The translations under genes and the position numbers were made by a program. A DNA stretch of 64,000 nt from Dehalococcoidia bacterium (GTDB lineage Bacteria; Chloroflexota; Dehalococcoidia; UBA2979): positions 3,424,001 to 3,488,000 of the forward strand of contig OZ253555.1 in assembly GCA_965262725.1 (NCBI GenBank), in the 5' to 3' direction. This document shows positions 49,201 through 60,000 of this stretch, piece by piece (the first letter of the stretch is position 1; each line of letters starts with the position of its first letter). Under the pieces are notes generated by a model that did not search any database, was not told the DNA's origin, and saw only the letters and a program-made list of their open reading frames with translations.

Positions 49201-50132
49201 CGCCTGACCACCCCGGTCCGGCCGTAACCGCCGCCGCGGAGGCTCCACGCACCCTCCTCGGTGGCTATCTCGCCGTCGGCTCCACCCGCGAATGGCTGAG
49301 GGTCTGGGCAGCCATCCTCATCCTCCTCGGCCCCGCGAGGCTCGTCCTTCGCCTCGCCGCCGTGCTGCCGGAGCGGGGCCCGGCACGCACCCGCGGCCGT
49401 GCGGCCTGCCGGGCCGCCGAGCGCTGGTGGGCTCGGCTCGCCGCCCGCCTCCTCGGTCTGCGCATCCACATCAGCGGTCTCGAACACATCGACCCGCAGG
49501 AGCGCTACGTGGTCGCCTCCCTCCACGAGGGCTTCGCCGACGGCCTCGCCCTGCTCCATCTCCCCCTCTCGCTCACGGCCGTCGCCCGCGACGAGCTCGC
49601 CACCTTCCCGTTCCTCGGCAACCAGCTCGTGCGCGGGCGGCACATCCTGATCCGCCCCGAGCGCCCGGTCCATGCCGCCCGTACCGTCCAGCGCGAGGCC
49701 CACGCTGCCATCGAGTCCGGCGACAGCGTCCTGTTCTTCCCCCAGGGCTCCATCCTCGGCATCGAGATCGCCTTCCAGCCTGGAGCCTTCAACCTCGCGC
49801 GCCGCCTCGGCCGCCCGCTCCTCCCCATAGTCGTCACGGGCGGCCATCGGGTCTGGGAGCACCCCTTCACGCCCACCCTGCGCGCCAACCAGTCCATGAG
49901 CGTCGCCGTGCTCCCGCCCGCCCCACCCGACGAAACCGTCTCCCGGCAAGCAACGATCGAGCGGTGCATGAAAGAGCGTGCCCTCGCGAGCGCCACGCCA
50001 CCTCGCCGCTTCGACCCGAGCCGCGACGGCTACTGGGACGCCTACCGCTATGAGATCGACCCCGCCTTCCCCGACCTCGCCCAAGACATCGCCAGCCACC
50101 GCCGCGGTGCGGTGCGAGCCCACCCCCGCTAG
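49197..50132 (+). CDS. Lysophospholipid acyltransferase (PlsC-like)
   Basis: HEGFAD (HX4D), FFPQG; GTGA overlap with the upstream gene. Confidence 0.8.
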   Translation: MTPDHPGPAVTAAAEAPRTLLGGYLAVGSTREWLRVWAAILILLGPARLVLRLAAVLPERGPARTRGRAACRAAERWWARLAARLLGLRIHISGLEHIDPQERYVVASLHEGFADGLALLHLPLSLTAVARDELATFPFLGNQLVRGRHILIRPERPVHAARTVQREAHAAIESGDSVLFFPQGSILGIEIAFQPGAFNLARRLGRPLLPIVVTGGHRVWEHPFTPTLRANQSMSVAVLPPAPPDETVSRQATIERCMKERALASATPPRRFDPSRDGYWDAYRYEIDPAFPDLAQDIASHRRGAVRAHPR

Positions 50133-50273
50133 CCCTGGTCCCGCCATCGAAGCGAGCACGCCGGGCGCGACCCCAACCAGACCGACGGCCTGGCGGCTAC
50201 AGCGTCACGGGCGCTCGAACGTTCGTAGGACAGTCGGGTCGGGCGTCGCAGGCCGGATAACGACCGCCGGCGC

Positions 50274-51155
50274 TCAGTCGAACTCCAGCGGCAGCGACGG
50301 ATCGGCGGCGTACTCCGACATCGAGGCGTCATAGACCGCGACGTCCTCGTAGCCCAGGAGCGAGAGGACGAAGGCGTCGTTGGACGCGGCGATGCCGCCC
50401 CCGCAGTACGTGACCACGCGCTGCGTGTGGTGCGCCCCCGCCTCTTCGAAGAGCGGCGCCAGCTCCTCCGCCGGGCGGTAGAGGCCGGTCTGGGGGTCGG
50501 TCAGCTCCATCGCCGGCACGTTGGTCGCGCGGGGGATGTGTCCGGCACGCCCGTAGGCTCGGCCGCCGTCGGCGCCCGAGTGCTGCTCCCGCCCGAGGGC
50601 GTTGATGAGGCAACTCCCGCCCCCGCCGCCCGACTCGACGAACGCGCGGACCTCGGCCAGGTCGGCGAAGCGGGCCGGGTCGGCGGTCGGCGTGAAGGTC
50701 GTGGGCGCGTACGCCGCCTCCCCCGTCGAGACGGGCCGGCCCTCGGCCGTCCAGCGACGCCAGCCGCCGTCGAGGACGGCCGCGCCCTCGCAGCCCATCG
50801 AGCGGAACATCCACCACAGCCTCGCCGCCCACGCCGAGCCCGAGCGGTCGTAGAGGACCAAGGTCGACGACTCCGAGATGCCGTGCCGTCCGGCCGCCGC
50901 TGCGAACGCCCCGGCCGAGGGCATCATGAAGCGCAGGCGGTGGTCGTTGTCTGAGAAGTCGGCCTGCAGGTCGAGGAAGGCCGCCCCGGGGATGTGTCCC
51001 GACTCATACTCCGCCCGTCCCGACTCGACGCGGTAGCCACCACCCTCCTGGGGACGCAGGAAGACGGTCGTCTCGAAGACGCACACGTCGTCGTCCTCCA
51101 CGTGCTCCGCCAGCCACTCGGTCGACACGAGGAACTCTGGATGCGCGAATGCCAT
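50274..51155 (-). CDS. Two-domain sulfurtransferase (rhodanese)
   Basis: GHIPGA, AARLWW, YCGGG, YDASMSEY. Confidence 0.92.
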   Translation of the reverse strand: MAFAHPEFLVSTEWLAEHVEDDDVCVFETTVFLRPQEGGGYRVESGRAEYESGHIPGAAFLDLQADFSDNDHRLRFMMPSAGAFAAAAGRHGISESSTLVLYDRSGSAWAARLWWMFRSMGCEGAAVLDGGWRRWTAEGRPVSTGEAAYAPTTFTPTADPARFADLAEVRAFVESGGGGGSCLINALGREQHSGADGGRAYGRAGHIPRATNVPAMELTDPQTGLYRPAEELAPLFEEAGAHHTQRVVTYCGGGIAASNDAFVLSLLGYEDVAVYDASMSEYAADPSLPLEFD

Positions 51156-51258
51156 GGTCAACTCCAGCCGGCGCGGGCCTGCGGTGAGAAGGCCGGTTCG
51201 CGGTCTAGTATCCCCATCCCGCGGACCGTCCGCGATCGCTTTCGGCCGGAGCGGGAGT

Positions 51259-51356
51259 CTACTCGCTCGCCGCCGCCTCGCGCAGCCGCCCGAGATCGAT
51301 GCTCTGCATCGTCAGCAGCACCTCCATGACGCGATCGGGCGCGATCGCCAGCAGCT
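51259..51356 (-). pseudogene. 3' half of the VOC-family gene split by IS110
   Basis: LLAIAPDRVMEVLLTMQSIDLGRLREAAASE* continues in frame from ...WQVVSAVPGE at 56581. Confidence 0.8.
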
Positions 51357-51364
51357 AATGGGAG

Positions 51365-51580
51365 CCGAACCAGAGGACCAGAGCGATCTGGGAGGATGGT
51401 TCCGGACCCGCCAGCCGGAGAGCATTACCAGTAGCTGAGGCGCTTGCGACCTCCAAGGGGAGACCGTGCCCCGGCTGGTTCGTTCGGGCCTGCGATGCAC
51501 TGATGGGGTGTCGTGCCGGTAGAGCACCGTGCCATTAGCTCGTTGCGGAGCAGCCCGGCGGGGCCAGCCAGCCAGGTGGG
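51365..51580 (+). ncRNA. Bridge RNA of element A (target- and donor-binding loops); ends approximate
   Basis: Stem 51411-51418/51471-51478 encloses CCAGTAGCT and GGGGAG; second loop contains ATGGGGTGTC and CCATTAG. Confidence 0.85.
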
Positions 51581-51598
51581 ACAGGAAGGGAGCACGGG

Positions 51599-52387
51599 TT
51601 GACGGTGTACGTGGGGGACGACTGGTCCGAGGACCATCACGACGTCCACGTCATGAACGAGGAGGGCGAGAGCCTCGAGGCGAAGCGACTCCCCGAGGGA
51701 GCGGAGGGCATGACCGCCCTCCACGCCCTGCTCGCCGAACACGCACAGGACGCCGGCCAGGTCGTGGTCGGCATCGAGACCGACCGCGGCCCGTGGGTCG
51801 CAGCGCTCATCGGCGCGGGCTACCGGGTCTACGCCATCAACCCGCGGGTGGCGTCCCTCTACCGCGAGCGCCACCAGGTCGGCGGCGGGAAGTCGGACCG
51901 GGGCGATGCGCGCATGCTCGCCAACCTCGTCCGCACCGACAGCCACAACCACCGGCCGGTCGCGGGCGACAGCGCCCTCGCCTCCGCCGTGCAGGTGCGT
52001 GCCCGCGCCCAGCAGCAGCTGGTCTGGAATCGCACCCGCGAGAGCAACCGACTGCGCAGCGCGCTGCTGCAGTACTTCCCGGCCACACTCCAGGCCTTCC
52101 CCGACCTCACGCATCCCGATGCGCTCTCGGTGCTAGCCGTCGCCCCGGACCCGCTCGCAGCGGCGAAGCTGACGCGGGCGCAGATCCGTGCGGCGCTCAG
52201 GCGCGGGGGCCGCAAGCGCAACCTGGACACGCGGACGGAGGAGATCCACGAGAAGCTCCGCCTCCGCACGCTCCACGTCGCGCCCGTCCTCACCGAGGCG
52301 TTCGCCGACAGCGTGCTCGTCCAGGTTGCCCAGCTCCAGGAGATCAACCGGCAGCTCGAGGGACTGGAGTCGAAGCTGGCCCCGTCT
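51599..52387 (+). pseudogene. IS110 recombinase A, N-terminal part (DEDD RuvC-like domain)
   Basis: YVGDDW, GIETD, KSDRGDA; interrupted at ...KLAPS. Confidence 0.92.
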
Positions 52388-52396
52388 ACCGACTAA

Positions 52397-53836
52397 CTAC
52401 ACCGTCGCCAAACCTGTGATCGGCGGTCCGGGAGCTCCGGTTCCATCCGCTTCGTGGCCTCCGAGCGGCACCAGCTGGTAGCCGAGCTTCCTGGCCCTGC
52501 GTCTCGCGTTGCGGAGGGCTCTCTCGTGGTGCTGCGCCTCGTAGTACTCGGCTCCGGCGTCCGTGTACCCGTGTCCGTACTTCAGGCTCGAGTAGATGAT
52601 CCTCGCCAGCTTGTGAGCCGTCGCAGTGATGGCCTTGGCTGGCCCCAGCTGCGCCTTCTTCCTCCGCAGGAACGCCCCCAGGGCGCTGTCGGAGCGGTGA
52701 AGACCGAAGGCGGCAAGACGCAGGGCCGCTGCTGCCCGGTTCGCCGACGGCGTGGTCCGGGAGCTGATGACCTTGCCTCCGGTGACGCGGTTGTTCGGGC
52801 TCAGGCCCAACCACGATGCGAAGTGCTTCGGGGTTTCCCAGCGGCTCATGTCCACTCCGACCTCGCTGACGACCTTCAGCGCCGTATGGGCGTCCACGCC
52901 ATCGATGCGCGTCAGGTCCACCCCCGTCATCCGGTAGAGATGGCTCCGCACGTCGAACGCCGGCGCATTCTTGGCGCGCTTCGACCGCTTGGGCTTCCCG
53001 AGAGGCGGCCGGGGGTCGCCGGAATCGTCCCACTCCTCCAGTAGCGCCTCGAGCTTCCCGTCGCACTCGGCGATCTTGCCCTGGTACACCCGGTAGAGAT
53101 CCCGGGCCTGCGCCAGTTCGAAGAGGTGCTCCTCCCGCCAGTGCCCCTCCAGTGACCGGGCGATCATCGACGTGTCCGCCCGGATCCTCGGGTCACGCAG
53201 CTGCGCCAGCTTCACGGGGTCACGCTCGCCACCAATGACGGCATCAATGATGGCCAGTCCCGTCGCGCCGGTGATGTCGCTGATGACGTGCTGGAGCTTG
53301 ACGTTCATCTGGGTCAGGGCCTTCTGCATGTGCTGAACGTGTCTGGCCGCGTCCTCGACCAGCAGGGCTCGCTGCCGCATGTAGCTGCGCAGTCGGCGGA
53401 TATCCTCATCGGGACGGAAGGCTCCGGAGAGCAGCCCGTAGGTGTGAAGCTGCTGGATCCACTGGCTGTCCAGCACATCCGTCTTGCGGCCGGGCGCATT
53501 CTTGATGCCCCTCGGGTTCACCAACAGCACCTCGAATCCCCGCTCCTCCAGCACTCCGAAGAGCGGGATCCAGTACACCCCCGTCGACTCCAGCGCCACG
53601 GTCTCGATGCCGCACTCGGCCAACCAGTCCGCCAGGCGGTACAGGTCGCCCGTGAAAGCTGCGAACTCCCGCACCGGCGTATCGGAACGGTCCTCGGGGA
53701 CTGCCACGAAGTGGCTCTCGGCGCCCACATCGATCCCGGCCGCGTTCAGGTTCACCCGGGACAGCGCCGCGGGCAGTACCGGCGGATCGCCCCGCGTTCC
53801 GTCGGCGCGCCGGGCACTCTCGCCTCGTGTCTCCAT
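52397..53836 (-). CDS. IS110 recombinase B (479 aa), copy 1
   Basis: AGIDVG, ALESTGVYW, RKTDVLDS, FASWLGLSP; ATG follows a purine-rich RBS. Confidence 0.93.
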   Translation of the reverse strand: METRGESARRADGTRGDPPVLPAALSRVNLNAAGIDVGAESHFVAVPEDRSDTPVREFAAFTGDLYRLADWLAECGIETVALESTGVYWIPLFGVLEERGFEVLLVNPRGIKNAPGRKTDVLDSQWIQQLHTYGLLSGAFRPDEDIRRLRSYMRQRALLVEDAARHVQHMQKALTQMNVKLQHVISDITGATGLAIIDAVIGGERDPVKLAQLRDPRIRADTSMIARSLEGHWREEHLFELAQARDLYRVYQGKIAECDGKLEALLEEWDDSGDPRPPLGKPKRSKRAKNAPAFDVRSHLYRMTGVDLTRIDGVDAHTALKVVSEVGVDMSRWETPKHFASWLGLSPNNRVTGGKVISSRTTPSANRAAAALRLAAFGLHRSDSALGAFLRRKKAQLGPAKAITATAHKLARIIYSSLKYGHGYTDAGAEYYEAQHHERALRNARRRARKLGYQLVPLGGHEADGTGAPGPPITGLATV

Positions 53837-53852
53837 CCTCTCGCCCCCTCCC

Positions 53853-54022
53853 CCACAGCGTGGGCGTGTGACCGGAGGGAGCCACGACCAGACCGACACT
53901 CTACCGAACGGGATCGCCCCGACGGGACGTCACCAGTGATGCAGTCGCAGGGCTCCCGGACCATGCTTTTGAACGGGCAGATCGCACCAACGATGTACCG
54001 GCCTCGGCCCGGTCATCACGCC
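53853..54022 (-). ncRNA. Bridge-RNA-like structured region of element B, copy 1
   Basis: Same sequence as 55568-55737. Confidence 0.7.
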
Positions 54023-54111
54023 TCGCCGCGACTATACATCGCCGCTCGGCCCACCCCAGTTAGTGGCTTGCTGCACCGCCCGGCCGCCGGGGGTGGGGTG
54101 CTACCGACTAA

Positions 54112-55551
54112 CTACACCGTCGCCAAACCTGTGATCGGCGGTCCGGGAGCTCCGGTTCCATCCGCTTCGTGGCCTCCGAGCGGCACCAGCTGGTAGCCGA
54201 GCTTCCTGGCCCTGCGTCTCGCGTTGCGGAGGGCTCTCTCGTGGTGCTGCGCCTCGTAGTACTCGGCTCCGGCGTCCGTGTACCCGTGTCCGTACTTCAG
54301 GCTCGAGTAGATGATCCTCGCCAGCTTGTGAGCCGTCGCAGTGATGGCCTTGGCTGGCCCCAGCTGCGCCTTCTTCCTCCGCAGGAACGCCCCCAGGGCG
54401 CTGTCGGAGCGGTGAAGACCGAAGGCGGCAAGACGCAGGGCCGCTGCTGCCCGGTTCGCCGACGGCGTGGTCCGGGAGCTGATGACCTTGCCTCCGGTGA
54501 CGCGGTTGTTCGGGCTCAGGCCCAACCACGATGCGAAGTGCTTCGGGGTTTCCCAGCGGCTCATGTCCACTCCGACCTCGCTGACGACCTTCAGCGCCGT
54601 ATGGGCGTCCACGCCATCGATGCGCGTCAGGTCCACCCCCGTCATCCGGTAGAGATGGCTCCGCACGTCGAACGCCGGCGCATTCTTGGCGCGCTTCGAC
54701 CGCTTGGGCTTCCCGAGAGGCGGCCGGGGGTCGCCGGAATCGTCCCACTCCTCCAGTAGCGCCTCGAGCTTCCCGTCGCACTCGGCGATCTTGCCCTGGT
54801 ACACCCGGTAGAGATCCCGGGCCTGCGCCAGTTCGAAGAGGTGCTCCTCCCGCCAGTGCCCCTCCAGTGACCGGGCGATCATCGACGTGTCCGCCCGGAT
54901 CCTCGGGTCACGCAGCTGCGCCAGCTTCACGGGGTCACGCTCGCCACCAATGACGGCATCAATGATGGCCAGTCCCGTCGCGCCGGTGATGTCGCTGATG
55001 ACGTGCTGGAGCTTGACGTTCATCTGGGTCAGGGCCTTCTGCATGTGCTGAACGTGTCTGGCCGCGTCCTCGACCAGCAGGGCTCGCTGCCGCATGTAGC
55101 TGCGCAGTCGGCGGATATCCTCATCGGGACGGAAGGCTCCGGAGAGCAGCCCGTAGGTGTGAAGCTGCTGGATCCACTGGCTGTCCAGCACATCCGTCTT
55201 GCGGCCGGGCGCATTCTTGATGCCCCTCGGGTTCACCAACAGCACCTCGAATCCCCGCTCCTCCAGCACTCCGAAGAGCGGGATCCAGTACACCCCCGTC
55301 GACTCCAGCGCCACGGTCTCGATGCCGCACTCGGCCAACCAGTCCGCCAGGCGGTACAGGTCGCCCGTGAAAGCTGCGAACTCCCGCACCGGCGTATCGG
55401 AACGGTCCTCGGGGACTGCCACGAAGTGGCTCTCGGCGCCCACATCGATCCCGGCCGCGTTCAGGTTCACCCGGGACAGCGCCGCGGGCAGTACCGGCGG
55501 ATCGCCCCGCGTTCCGTCGGCGCGCCGGGCACTCTCGCCTCGTGTCTCCAT
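54112..55551 (-). CDS. IS110 recombinase B (479 aa), copy 2
   Basis: Translation identical to copy 1. Confidence 0.92.
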   Translation of the reverse strand: METRGESARRADGTRGDPPVLPAALSRVNLNAAGIDVGAESHFVAVPEDRSDTPVREFAAFTGDLYRLADWLAECGIETVALESTGVYWIPLFGVLEERGFEVLLVNPRGIKNAPGRKTDVLDSQWIQQLHTYGLLSGAFRPDEDIRRLRSYMRQRALLVEDAARHVQHMQKALTQMNVKLQHVISDITGATGLAIIDAVIGGERDPVKLAQLRDPRIRADTSMIARSLEGHWREEHLFELAQARDLYRVYQGKIAECDGKLEALLEEWDDSGDPRPPLGKPKRSKRAKNAPAFDVRSHLYRMTGVDLTRIDGVDAHTALKVVSEVGVDMSRWETPKHFASWLGLSPNNRVTGGKVISSRTTPSANRAAAALRLAAFGLHRSDSALGAFLRRKKAQLGPAKAITATAHKLARIIYSSLKYGHGYTDAGAEYYEAQHHERALRNARRRARKLGYQLVPLGGHEADGTGAPGPPITGLATV

Positions 55552-55567
55552 CCTCTCGCCCCCTCCC

Positions 55568-55737
55568 CCACAGCGTGGGCGTGTGACCGGAGGGAGCCAC
55601 GACCAGACCGACACTCTACCGAACGGGATCGCCCCGACGGGACGTCACCAGTGATGCAGTCGCAGGGCTCCCGGACCATGCTTTTGAACGGGCAGATCGC
55701 ACCAACGATGTACCGGCCTCGGCCCGGTCATCACGCC
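55568..55737 (-). ncRNA. Bridge-RNA-like structured region of element B, copy 2; ends approximate
   Basis: Closing stem GGCGTG-A-TGACCGG/CCGGTCA-CACGCC, stem GGGAGCC/GGCTCCC, guides TCAAAAG and TCGGTAG; -10-like TATAGT at 55746-55751. Confidence 0.72.
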
Positions 55738-55817
55738 TCGCCGCGACTATACATCGCCGCTCGGCCCACCCCAGTTAGTGGCTTGCTGCACCGCCCGGCC
55801 GCCGGGGGTGGGGTGCT

Positions 55818-56255
55818 TTTGAGGAGCACCCGGACGCCGCGATTTACCTGTCGATGCCGGGCCTGGGGCCCGTGCTCGGCGCCCGGGTGCTGGGCGAGTT
55901 CGGGGATGACCCCGAACGCTACGAGTCCGCGAAGTCTCGCAGGAACTACGCGGGCACGTCGCCGCTCACCATAGCATCGGGGCGGAAGCGGACGGTCACC
56001 GCGCGCCACGTGCGGAACCGGCGCCTCTACGACGCGGTACACATGTGGGCGTTCTGCTCGCTCCAGGCGAGTCCCGGGTGCCGGGCGTACTACCAGCAGC
56101 GGCAAGCGCTGGGCGACGGGCACCACCAGGCGCTGCGCGCCCTCGCCAACCGCCTGGTCGCGTTCCTGCACGGCTGCCTGAGCACGCGTCGGCTCTACGA
56201 CGAGGAGGCGGCCTGGGGCAGCCTGAAGACTGAGCCTGCCGAGCTCGCCGCCTGA
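55818..56255 (+). pseudogene. IS110 recombinase A, C-terminal part (Tnp20 domain)
   Basis: FEEHPDAAIYLSMPGLG...YAGTSPLTIASG...ALRALANRL, in frame with 51599-52387. Confidence 0.92.
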
Positions 56256-56580
56256 CGGAGGTCGTTGAGCGCCTCGGCGGGCCCGGACTCATCCAGGGTC
56301 TGGAGCTCGTTGAGGGCGCAACACGGCGCGACGAGTCCCTGCACACCCCGATCACGGACGCCGGCAGCGGTCGGTGAGCCACCGCATGTCCGCGAAGCTG
56401 AGACGCAGCTCACGCCGGCCAGGACCATCCTCTCCGGCGGCGTCGACATCGGAACACCGCCGCGATCACGGCTCTAGCACGGCGCTCCGGCTGCTCACGA
56501 TCTCCTTCGCCTCGCGCACCCGACGCCCCGATCCGCTGCCCGGGTGGGGGCGCCCCTTGCGCGTTACGGACATGGGGTGT

Positions 56581-56909
56581 CTCCCCGGGCACCGCGGAGA
56601 CGACCTGCCAGGAAACGCCGAACTCCTCCTCGAGCCCGCCGCACTGGCCGGGGGCGCCGCCCTCAAAGAGCCGCTTCCGGAAGTGGTCGATCTCCTCGTG
56701 CGTCGTGCAGGTGACGACGAAGGAGATCGCCGGCGTGAACTCACCCATCGGACCACCGTCGGGGGCCTCGAAGCGATGTCCGTCAACCTCCAGCCCCGGC
56801 ACCGCGCCGACCCCGGCGGAGCACCACGGGATCTCCGAGCCGGAGAGGATGCTCGATCCGGGGAAGACGCCGGCGCAGAACTCGGCGGCAGCGGTCCGCG
56901 TCCGGGCAT
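56581..56909 (-). pseudogene. 5' half of a degenerate VOC-family gene
   Basis: DGGPMGEFTPAISFVVTC..EEIDHF..GQCGGLEEEFGVSWQVV; conserved Trp positions look mutated; start not recognisable. Confidence 0.75.
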
Positions 56910-57048
56910 CAGGGCGTCCGCCGCGGCGCCCGCACTCTCCGTCGCTGCCCCTCGACTCGATGGGTGCGGGCGCTCCGCTGCGGGCGGCCGCTATGGTGGC
57001 GACGCGGGCGGATGTCACATCCTGTCGGACGGCCGTCGGAGGCGGGCG

Positions 57049-60000
57049 ATGAGTACGGTGGGCGTCGAGGAGCGCACGCGGGAGTTGGGGCTCGCCCTGC
57101 TCGCGGAGGCGGCGCGCTACCGGCCGGGCCCGGCGGAGCGCATCCAGGACTGGCTGCTGGGCCTGACCGCCGCCAATGAGCGCTTCCGCGCCCGCCTGCT
57201 TCGTTACCTCGACGTACTCGCCTCGGTCGACCACGACACCAGCGGCCTGGAGGCGAAGCGGCTCGCGGCCGAGTACTTCGGCGACGACTTCCCTGAGCTG
57301 CCCCGCGGACTGCGCTGGCTGCTCCGGCTCGCCCGCGACAAACACGTGCCGGCGCGCCTCATGGGCGAGACGTCGCGTCGCGGGGCCGAGCTGTTCGCAC
57401 GGCGCTTCATCATGCCTCCCGGCGCGGAGACGGTGGCCGAGACGGTACGGCAGCTGCGCGATCACGGCCGCCTCCCCTCGTTCGATCTGCTCGGGGAGGC
57501 CGTGCTCAGCGAGCGCGAGGCCGAGGCCTACCTCGAGCGCTACCTCGCACTCGTCCGGCAGCTCGCCGATGACGCCGCGGCCGGCGAGATCACGGCGGGT
57601 GGCGTGTTCGCGCTCCAGGTCTCGCTCAAGATCTCCTCACTCACCGCGCACTTCAGCCCCGTCGACCCCGACGGCACGATCGCGCGCGTTCGTCCCCCGC
57701 TCGAGGCGATCGTCGAGGCGGCGGAGACTGCGGGCGTCGGCGTCACGGTCGACATGGAGCAGTTCGAGTACCGCGACCTCACGTGGGAGATGTTCACCCG
57801 CACGTTCGCGCGCGGCGAGCGCTTCGGCGGCTGGCCGGGCGCGGGGATCGTGTTGCAGGCCTACCTGCGCGAGGCCGACGCCCACGCGGATGCCCTCGTC
57901 GCGTTCGCCCGGGTGCGCGGCGTCCCGTTCCAGGTGCGGCTGGTCAAGGGCGCGTACTGGGACTACGAGAACATCGTCGCCCGCGCGGCAGGCTGGAGGC
58001 CGCCGGTCTTCACTCGCAAGGCCGCCACGGACGCGGCGTTCGAGCGCGTGCTCGCGCGACTGGTGAGAGCGCACCCGGCGCTCCACGTGGCGGTCGGAAG
58101 CCACAACGCGCGCGCCCACGCGCTGGCCGAGGCGCTCGCGGAGGCCTCGGGTCTCCCGCAGGGGGCGGTGGAACACCAGACGCTCTTCCGCACGGCTGAG
58201 GGCACGAGCCGCGCACTGGCGGGGCTCGGCTGGGCGGCCCGCGACTACGTGCCGTCGGGTGAGCTGCTGCCGGGCATGGCCTACCTGGTGCGGCGCGTGC
58301 TCGAGAACTCCTCGCAGGCCGGCATCCTCCTGCAGGGACGCACCGGCGCACCGCCCGAGGAGCTGCTACGCGCCCCGCCCGCGCTCGGGCCGGCTGCGCA
58401 GCCCCCGCCCGCGGCGTCGGGAGGACTCAAGCGGACGCCGGAGGCGCGCTGGTTCGACCCGGACTTCCGCGATGCGTTCGAGGCGGCGCTCGCCTCGACT
58501 CGCGCGCGCTGGGGAGAGCGCGTCGCGCTGCGCGCCGGCGGGGTTGCGCTGCCCGCCGCCGAGACGCGCGCGGTGCAGAGTCCCTCGCACCCCGAGGCAG
58601 AGCCGGTGGGCGTCGTCGAGTTCGCGGCCGCCGAGAGCGCCGGGCGCGCGATCGCCGTCGCCGCCTCGGGGCTCCGCGGCTGGGCGGCCAGGCCGGCGGC
58701 GGAACGGGCGTCGGTGCTGCGTCGGGCGGCCGATCTGCTCCGGGTGCGAGGCCACGAGTTTGCCGCGTGGATCGTGCACGAGGGCGGCCGCGACCGCGCC
58801 GGCGCGTGGACCGAGGTCGAGGAGGCGATCGATTTTCTGCACTACTACGCATCGCAGGCGGAGGCACTGTTCGGGGCGTTTGGTGACCGCATCGCGCCCC
58901 GGGGCGTGGTGGCCGTGATCCCGCCGTGGAACTTCCCCCTCGCGATCCCCAGCGGAATGACGGCGGCGGCTCTCGCCTGCGGGAACGCGGTCATCCTCAA
59001 GCCCGCCGAGCAGACGCCGCTGCTCGGCGGGCGCCTCGCCGCGCTGCTGCACGAGGCCGGCGTGCCCGACGACGCGCTGATCTCTCTACCCGGCCGCGGC
59101 GAGACGGTCGGTGCCGCGCTGGCGGAGAGCTCCGATGTCTCCATGGTGGCGTTCACGGGGTCGCGCGCCGTCGGCACGCTGCTCCACGAGATCGTCGCGC
59201 GCGTCGAGCCCGCCGGCGGGGCGGCGACGAAGACGCTCGTCGCGGAGATGGGGGGCAAGAACTCGGTGCTCGTCTTCCCGGACGCCGACCCCGACGAGGT
59301 CGTGGACGGCGTCATCCGCTCCGCCTTCGGGCACGCCAACCAGAAGTGCTCGGCGGCCTCGCTCATCCTCGTGGCGGAGCCCGCCTACGAGCCGATCCGC
59401 GACCGTCTGGTCGAGGCCGCGCGCAGCCTCCGCGCCGGGAGGGCCGACGCGCCCGGGACGCAGATCAATCCGGTCATCGATCGCGACGCCCGTGAGCGGC
59501 TCCTGCGCGACGCCGAGACCGCCCGCGCCGAAGGGGAGGTGCTCCTCGATCGCTTCGAGGAGCCTGCCGCGGTCGGCGGGCAGCTGGCGCTCGGTCCGCT
59601 CGTGATCGAGCTCCCGGCCTGGCGAGCGCGCGAAGCGCGCACGACGACCGAGGAGCTCTTCGGCCCGATCCTCGCGCTGATCCCGTTCGCGACCGAGGAG
59701 GAAGCCTACGCGGTCGCGAACGGGACGGACTACGGGCTCACCGCCGGCGTCTTCTCGCGCAGCCCCGCGACCATCGAGCGCGCCGCCCGGGCGCTCGAGG
59801 CCGGCAACATTTACGCCAACCGCGCCATCACGGCGGCGCGCGTCGGCGTCGAGCCGTTCGGTGGAATGAAGATGTCCGGCACCGGCCCGAAAGCCGGCGG
59901 AGCCGACTATCTCTGGGCGTTCGTGCACCGCACCGACGCGCCCGCAGGCGAGTGCGACGCTCCGCAAGAGGCTTCATCGTCCGGCGGGGAGACACGGCGG

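Follow-up and report, generated by a model that had tools for sequence, protein, structure and literature searches.

A stretch of 64,000 nucleotides (nt) from a Dehalococcoidia bacterium (GenBank assembly GCA_965262725.1, contig OZ253555.1, positions 3,424,001 to 3,488,000 of the forward strand), which we call the window and number from its first letter, contains two identical copies of an IS110-family insertion sequence (IS), named IS-B here, that are joined head to tail and interrupt the gene for the transposase of another member of the family, IS-A. This IS-B dimer is very probably a real feature of the genome. As to its origin, we propose with evenly balanced confidence that a genuine dimer was made when a circle of IS-B re-inserted at the one junction of a resident copy that keeps a half-site matched by the putative guide RNA of the element.

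Structure of the IS-B dimer

An identity scan at a period of 1715 over window positions 50000-58000 revealed a sole run of identity, at 52386-54102 (1717 bases), and the two units defined by it, 52386-54100 and 54101-55815, follow each other head to tail with 0 mismatches in 1715 base pairs (bp). CT cores are located at 52386-52387, 54101-54102 and 55816-55817, and the junctions read, in this order, CCCCGT-CT-ACCGAC, GGGGTG-CT-ACCGAC and GGGGTG-CT-TTTGAGG. Tandem Repeats Finder reported nothing for the IS-B dimer, as its longest period is 500 and it is blind to one of 1715. Both copies are oriented on the minus strand, and each 1715-bp unit includes one CT core; read along the transposase gene, copy 1 (52386-54100) is the downstream and copy 2 (54101-55815) the upstream copy. 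The middle junction (54090-54113) reads GGGGTGGGGTG-CT-ACCGACTAACT and consists of right end, core and left end, that is, of a complete donor (circle-type) junction, and the third CT core (55816-55817) adjoins the right part of IS-A (CT-TTTGAGG).

The unit boundaries are true element ends, as two single IS-B copies elsewhere in the genome begin with CT-ACCGAC and end with GGGGTG-CT at the same bases. Since the boundaries of the dimer match these single-copy ends to the base, the middle junction joins two genuine element ends and does not stem from an arbitrary duplication, and the locus comprises two complete copies in direct orientation, connected end to end by a circle-type junction. The two ends, ACCGAC... 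and ...GGGGTG, do not form inverted repeats, and the 2-nt core is shared with no long target duplication. A sequence-only reading of this DNA had described three CT cores 1715 bp apart, a perfect head-to-tail IS110 dimer and a middle GGGGTG-CT-ACCGA as the end-to-end donor junction; the absence of mismatches, the transposase domains given below and the ends of the two single copies bear out these claims.

Each unit encodes a transposase on the minus strand. In copy 1 the gene occupies 52397-53836, giving 479 amino acids from a putative ATG at 53836, and it stops about 10 nt short of the element end; in copy 2 it occupies 54112-55551, with its stop codon about 10 nt upstream of the copy 1 leader. 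The maximal open reading frames (ORFs) are longer and reach from 52397 to 53899 and from 54112 to 55614, both on the minus strand. The IS-B protein matches PF01548 with an E value of 3e-22 (79.5 bits; Pfam cut-off 29) and PF02371 with an E value of 7e-12 (45.9 bits; Pfam cut-off 21.3), and judged by these predicted domains IS-B is an IS110-family element whose transposase combines a DEDD (RuvC-like) domain at the N-terminus with a Transposase_20 domain at the C-terminus. Comparison with the structure of the IS621 transposase gave a distant match (E value 7.7e-6), in which the GID, E(ST)G and KTDxxD motifs of IS-B align with what we assume, by their residue numbers, to be the DEDD positions of IS621. 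A threonine of IS-B (in RVTGGK) aligns with the serine of the YESG motif, which we take to be the catalytic residue of IS621. Among relatives, motif hits comprised 43 TGG and 21 SGG, the latter in more distant relatives. The threonine is shared by IS-B and a Dehalococcoidia subclade, and because the threonine-bearing elements are multi-copy and near-identical, they are presumably active.

The insertion site within IS-A

The two parts of IS-A flank the dimer on the plus strand. The left part (51352-52385) contains a predicted DEDD domain (ORF 51599-52396), the right part (55818-56586) a predicted Transposase_20 domain (ORF 55854-56255), and by this split the dimer lies in the transposase gene of an IS110-family element other than IS-B. 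The sequence-only reading mentioned neither this IS110 host element around the dimer nor published precedents for such tandems.

The window sits in a single contig of 3,674,403 bp, and the completeness of the assembly is 91.55%. Besides the dimer, the genome has two single IS-B copies that differ from the dimer unit by 3 and 4 single-nucleotide polymorphisms (SNPs), and both of them occupy the same IS-A position as the dimer, with the same ends and the same type of flank. While the IS-A copies are mutually 92-96% identical, the IS-B copies are 99.8-100% identical, indicating three separate recent IS-B insertions; spread as IS-A::IS-B composites was rejected on these same values. Two further IS-A copies are uninterrupted and carry a single CT at the site, compared with a CT at both ends in the occupied copies, which defines the 2-nt core.

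Another IS-A::IS-B composite (G000:C1:3421304-3424201), in which IS-A is truncated on the left, is situated about 53 kb upstream and has the orientation of the dimer locus. Positions 1-201 of the window are its tail, and the two composites therefore constitute direct repeats that bracket most of the window. Within the right part of IS-A, at 55853-55934 on the minus strand, Rfam returned a match to Ms_AS-4, a family of antisense small RNAs (55.8 bits; cut-off 50). The match runs antisense to the part of the IS-A transposase gene that encodes its conserved helix-hairpin-helix and is found 38 nt from the IS-B insertion site, in the direction of IS-B.

Two guide-like blocks in the leader of IS-B

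The non-coding left end of IS-B, a leader of 264 nt on the minus strand (53837-54100 in copy 1 and 55552-55815 in copy 2), is a putative bridge RNA. In it we located a candidate left target guide, UCAAAAG, at 53966-53972 (minus strand; CTTTTGA on the plus strand; 55681-55687 in copy 2) and a candidate left donor guide, UCGGUAG, at 53901-53907 (minus strand; CTACCGA on the plus strand; 55616-55622 in copy 2). The CTTTTGA at the junction with IS-A, consisting of core and flank, is the base-for-base reverse complement of the block UCAAAAG. CTACCGA is present both in the leader and at the unit end, and the donor guide thus equals the right end of IS-B itself plus the core.

From 80 related loci, 38 leaders were aligned. 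The alignment showed two hypervariable blocks within a conserved frame. The first block is framed as GCCCG-[5 to 7 nt + AG]-CATGGTC and has the sense of the upstream flank plus core, and the second is framed as CCGTT-[4 nt + AG] and has the sense of the right end of the element itself plus core. Read along guide and transposase, the core is AG, and both left guides end in AG in 38 of the 38 aligned relatives. A permutation test covered 24 elements. The match of the first block to its flank plus core was 0.84, compared with a label-permuted mean of 0.38 and a maximum of 0.53, and that of the second block to the right end of the element itself was 0.92, compared with a label-permuted mean of 0.62 and a maximum of 0.79. 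Exceptions for the donor guide were L038, L044_939 and L046. At non-tandem loci, the flanks matched the target guide at 4.27 of 5 positions on average, versus 1.92 in the control. Two relatives at 90% DNA identity occupy a different target, and their leaders differ from that of IS-B mainly in short blocks. RNAalifold, applied to 25 leaders, predicted 40 consensus pairs, 8 of them with compensatory changes; an Rfam search of the leader yielded no match to a bridge-RNA family. In these sequence relations, the two leader blocks correspond to the left target guide and the left donor guide known from the bridge RNA of IS621.

The IS-A sites of the genome are consistent with such a role. At the three occupied sites, which read CT-TTTGAGG, the target guide matches at 7 of 7 positions, whereas the two empty sites read CT-CTTGAGG (TCAAG-AG in the guide direction) and mismatch directly beside the core. 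The two empty IS-A copies are identical over the 85 bases compared, so that numbers are small and shared descent is possible. With this proviso, the site pattern fits a guide-directed choice of target.

A further leader motif, ACUAAC(U), is placed some 38-44 nt in from the left end (window positions of about 54057-54063, minus strand) and is invariant in 38/38 relatives. It is complementary to a conserved right-end (A)GTTAGT, over 7 nt when ACUAACU of the leader is set against AGTTAGT of the right end. For a donor guide, ACUAACU has the wrong sense.

End-to-end arrays among relatives of IS-B

Exact junctions of the type right end-AG-left end were found at 11 of the 80 loci, in Dehalococcoidia relatives, and they read GTTAGTNNNN-AG-CA(G/A)AGTTATG. 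Nine array loci (L020, L027, L033, L039, L040, L044, L045, L049 and L050) pair elements that are only 79-86% identical to each other. Homologous recombination cannot make exact junctions between diverged elements, and a site-specific end-to-end stacking must therefore operate in the clade; likewise, since the array copies differ from each other, a collapse during assembly cannot explain the array junctions.

At some of these loci short mini-units accompany the elements. In L031 and L032, a mini-unit of 92 or 61 nt is positioned in front of an element, and in L027 and L039 a mini-unit is positioned between two elements. The 92-nt units are at 2653-2745 in L027, 842-934 in L031 and 2646-2738 in L039, the 61-nt unit at 871-932 in L032. 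All consist of the start of a left end fused to the tail of a right end, with AG cores as borders, are arranged head to tail with the full elements and resemble non-autonomous derivatives stacked within the arrays.

In four downstream elements (L032_932, L039_2738, L040_2587 and L044_2645) the target guide equals the right end of the upstream element at 5/5 positions and is unlike the left donor guide that the downstream element itself carries. These four elements therefore appear to be programmed to land behind another type of element. One could go further and imagine that the threonine-bearing clade with AG cores stacks purposely into ordered 'trains' that include the mini-units of 61-92 nt, and that the IS-B dimer is a maintained donor site, transcribed by read-through and serving as a launch pad for parasitising IS-A; this wider scenario we regard as rather improbable.

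A search of the family (99 genomes) and of the order (67 genomes of at least 85% completeness) identified close relatives of IS-B in only 2 other genomes, and none of these is in tandem. That no homodimer was seen among the relatives, as taken up below, fits the reported instability of such repeats. One pair, at L095 with a distance of 2426 nt, was examined as a possible homodimer and rejected, as about 465 nt of duplicated flank are located between its copies.

Possible routes to the IS-B dimer

In the route that we favour, IS-B would have inserted once at its normal guide-matched site within the IS-A transposase gene, and a circular copy would have arisen from that resident element. The IS-B recombinase, together with its RNA, would then have recombined the circle into the junction at 55816, where the half of the target that matches the guide is preserved, namely the flank TCAAA plus the core AG in the direction of the transposase, or CT-TTTGA on the plus strand. 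The outcome of such a 'half-match' insertion would be a complete donor junction kept in the chromosome, with the leader of the second copy placed directly downstream of the transposase gene of the first. The middle junction itself agrees with the target guide at 2 of 5 non-core positions (control mean 1.92), a match at the level of chance, and is therefore not a programmed target; the dimer thus needs a half-site reaction, homologous recombination or an error of assembly. Both dimer copies share one allele that is not present in the other genomic copies, from which they are 3-4 SNPs apart, in agreement with a circle that came from the resident element.

Published experiments provide precedents for the half-site step. 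According to the available text of one preprint, a single complementary half-site was sufficient for IS621 insertion in vitro and half-matches accounted for 47% of the IS621 insertion reads at non-target positions (bioRxiv 10.64898/2026.08.31.748434). For CazIS110-1, the accessible part of another preprint describes tandem cargo repeats in 3 of 96 colonies of an excision assay and characterizes these repeats as unstable by-products (bioRxiv 10.1101/2025.10.25.684509). The proposal of the sequence-only reading that a circle re-inserted at the junction carrying CTTTTGA thus holds up in so far as the guide block UCAAAAG matches that junction, the block covaries with the flank in relatives and half-site insertion has been published; homologous integration and an assembly error would give the same sequence.

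A real dimer could also have formed by a RecA-type crossover, in which a double-stranded IS-B circle integrates anywhere within the 1.7 kb of homology offered by the resident copy. The product would be the one seen, both copies would carry one allele as they do, and 1715 bp of perfect homology are an excellent substrate for recombination. RecA also touches the life cycle of a related element, as CazIS110-1 excision was about 2-fold lower without it in the data accessible from that preprint (bioRxiv 10.1101/2025.10.25.684509). Such integration would need a double-stranded circle, though, and two preprints argue, in the portions available, that what is excised is for the most part single-stranded or a copied-out product (bioRxiv 10.64898/2026.08.31.748434; bioRxiv 10.1101/2025.10.25.684509). 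Homologous recombination would moreover resolve the dimer back at a similar rate, and the exact junctions between diverged relatives demonstrate a site-specific route in the clade, even if for the present identical pair homologous recombination could still apply. Altogether, we accord this crossover a small but appreciable probability. A dimer produced in one step, either from a dimeric circle (donor x donor) entering the IS-A target or from a left x right junction between sister chromosomes that leaves a dimer and an empty site, would likewise look the same as what is seen. Such routes need rarer intermediates than a single re-insertion, come without direct evidence and appear very improbable to us.

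Read and assembly evidence

The remaining explanation is that the chromosome contains one IS-B copy at this site and that the assembler added a second one because of junction reads, which would stem from free circles or from a minority of the cells. For read-level evidence, Logan contigs of four runs (X1, X4, X6 and X7, one per study, from 24 runs listed) were searched with a repeat-free permuted stretch, 53250-54950, which is centred on the middle junction and lacks single-copy flank, so that copy number is unreadable from it. In 4 of 4 runs, contig pieces stop at 54102 and start at 54101, a pattern compatible with a dimer as well as with a single copy, and among the contigs listed for the four runs none bridges the middle junction. 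The host flanks (TTTGAGGAGCACC... and ...GCTGGCCGCGT) show as loose ends in the Logan contigs. Among the four runs, X1 alone has the allele of the dimer at 54571, and X1 alone has a contig that halts precisely where the unit ends, implying that a second base can follow there. As an indirect argument from the assembly graph, this fits junction molecules being common in X1. In metagenome_contigs, a 30-mer across the middle junction had 0 matches, and a 30-mer across the ordinary IS-B/IS-A junction likewise had 0, so that these zeros carry no weight either way.

Besides the lack of a bridge among the contigs listed, an assembly artefact would account for the perfect identity of the two copies, and the genome is rich in repeats, looks metagenome-derived and, at the completeness given above, consists of a single contig. 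A genome-wide scan detected just one other perfect whole-unit tandem, a dimer of an ORF-less group II intron of 862 bp, which could point to a systematic habit of the assembler. On the other side, a single contig of 3.67 Mb with dozens of identical repeats implies reads that were able to span 3.4 kb, a 1.7-kb circle of low abundance should not outvote chromosomal reads, and the contig pattern in X1 fits common junction molecules. Group II introns are not known to form a DNA circle, and the intron dimer more probably indicates that the assembly resolves true tandems. An artefact is therefore improbable in our estimation.

Several observations nevertheless weigh against a genuine dimer that arose by half-site re-insertion. 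Outside the assembled dimer the end-to-end junction was not seen, none of the contigs listed for the four runs bridges it, as described, and neither a circle nor an RNA was observed. Homologous integration of a circle yields the same product, and sequence cannot tell these routes apart. In view of the instability of CazIS110-1 repeats, a fixed dimer is somewhat unexpected, and no near-identical homodimer was encountered in the 80 related loci or in any other of the 99 family genomes and 67 order genomes. On the side of the RNA, right-hand guides complementary to the top strand were sought by eye and by permutation; the signal for a right target guide was weak (0.43-0.57, with a permuted maximum of 0.42-0.54), as was that for a right donor guide (0.36, with a permuted maximum of 0.29), and a search for sigma-70-like promoters gave 0 hits in 53700-54400, using a simple consensus from which the promoters of this phylum may differ.

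Comparison with known systems and possible consequences

Preprints of 2025-26 have already reported both tandem IS110 modules and half-match recombination, and the IS-B dimer belongs to this known kind. One survey among these preprints, in its available part, lists head-to-tail IS110 loci of multiple copies (n=437 complete modules and n=468 non-coding repeat units), reads such arrays as the repeated engagement of a resident recombination system at half-matched boundaries and portrays IS110 elements as lacking target immunity. The internal boundaries in that survey, as far as its available part goes, show one-sided donor matches, with complete donor pairs 'essentially absent'; in contrast, the IS-B dimer presents a complete, unaltered donor pair between identical units. 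Compared with the loci in that part of the survey, the dimer also differs in its Dehalococcoidia-type host genome and in its target, which is a gene of another IS110 element. CazIS110-1 resembles IS-B in forming a tandem repeat of itself at the resident site, there as a by-product of excision, but according to the accessible text its repeats were experimental, transient and reverted under continued induction, whereas the IS-B dimer is found in a genome consensus (bioRxiv 10.1101/2025.10.25.684509).

With IS621, in the published account as far as available, IS-B has in common a leader-encoded RNA (putative in IS-B) with the left target guide located 5' of the left donor guide, guides of the same sense as left half plus core, site specificity and a shared 2-nt core with no other duplication (PMC11208160). 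In IS621, each of the two left guides forms pairs with the bottom strand and takes in the core (PMC11208160). That core is reported as a highly conserved CT in IS621, and IS-B has AG in the guide direction. IS-B departs from IS621 in its distantly related protein, with a threonine for the aligned serine, in a predicted fold that places the guides differently, in right guides that give a weak signal only and in the sigma-70-like junction promoter that was not found in 53700-54400. The (IS)2 tandem dimers of IS30-type elements are similar to the IS-B dimer in their end-to-end junction, which in the IS30 type is active towards targets; in the accessible description they involve DDE transposases, inverted repeats and a spacer between the repeats, whereas IS-B has a predicted DEDD + Ser/Thr recombinase, a putative RNA guide and a shared 2-nt core (PMC9333248). 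The IS117 minicircle of Streptomyces coelicolor, a member of the IS110 family, exists in free circular form and integrates site-specifically.

Because the general phenomenon has already been described, the value of the IS-B dimer is confirmatory and the finding as such is not surprising. It offers a clean natural specimen of a tandem of an RNA-guided IS110 element with an intact donor junction in the chromosome, for which evidence has so far come mainly from Escherichia coli assays and large surveys. Three controls accompany it, namely single copies at the same site, empty sites with a one-base mismatch to the guide and diverged relatives that stack, and they make the model of half-site re-insertion directly testable. 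The locus also illustrates how one bridge-type element can specialise on the transposase gene of another. As the transposase gene of the upstream copy ends about 10 nt before the middle junction, read-through from it could transcribe the leader of the downstream copy. In IS621, recombination between a donor and a matching target leads to deletion or inversion, according to the part of the account available (PMC11208160). Cointegration, which the sequence-only reading proposed for a chromosomal donor site together with inversion, would likewise follow from the known behaviour of IS621. If the dimer is real, its chromosomal donor site could by analogy drive deletions or inversions against any matching target and, if this is true, the locus bears on genome stability and on how off-target events are thought of in editing with bridge recombinases.

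Other tandem repeats in the genome

The intron dimer detected in the genome-wide scan is situated outside the window at G000:C1:549499-551222 (L096 2000-3723), within the ORF for the reverse transcriptase of a full-length group II intron, and it constitutes the second parasite-in-parasite tandem of this genome. The 862-bp intron matches the Rfam family group-II-D1D4-4 at 102.8 bits and has matches for domains V/VI; BLAST found 23 full-length copies at 100% identity, the two units of the dimer being counted. A near-perfect tandem duplication of 1092 bp (99.7% identity) occurs at G000:C1:1926895-1929078 and adjoins an array of 330/333-bp repeats at 1929780-1936930.

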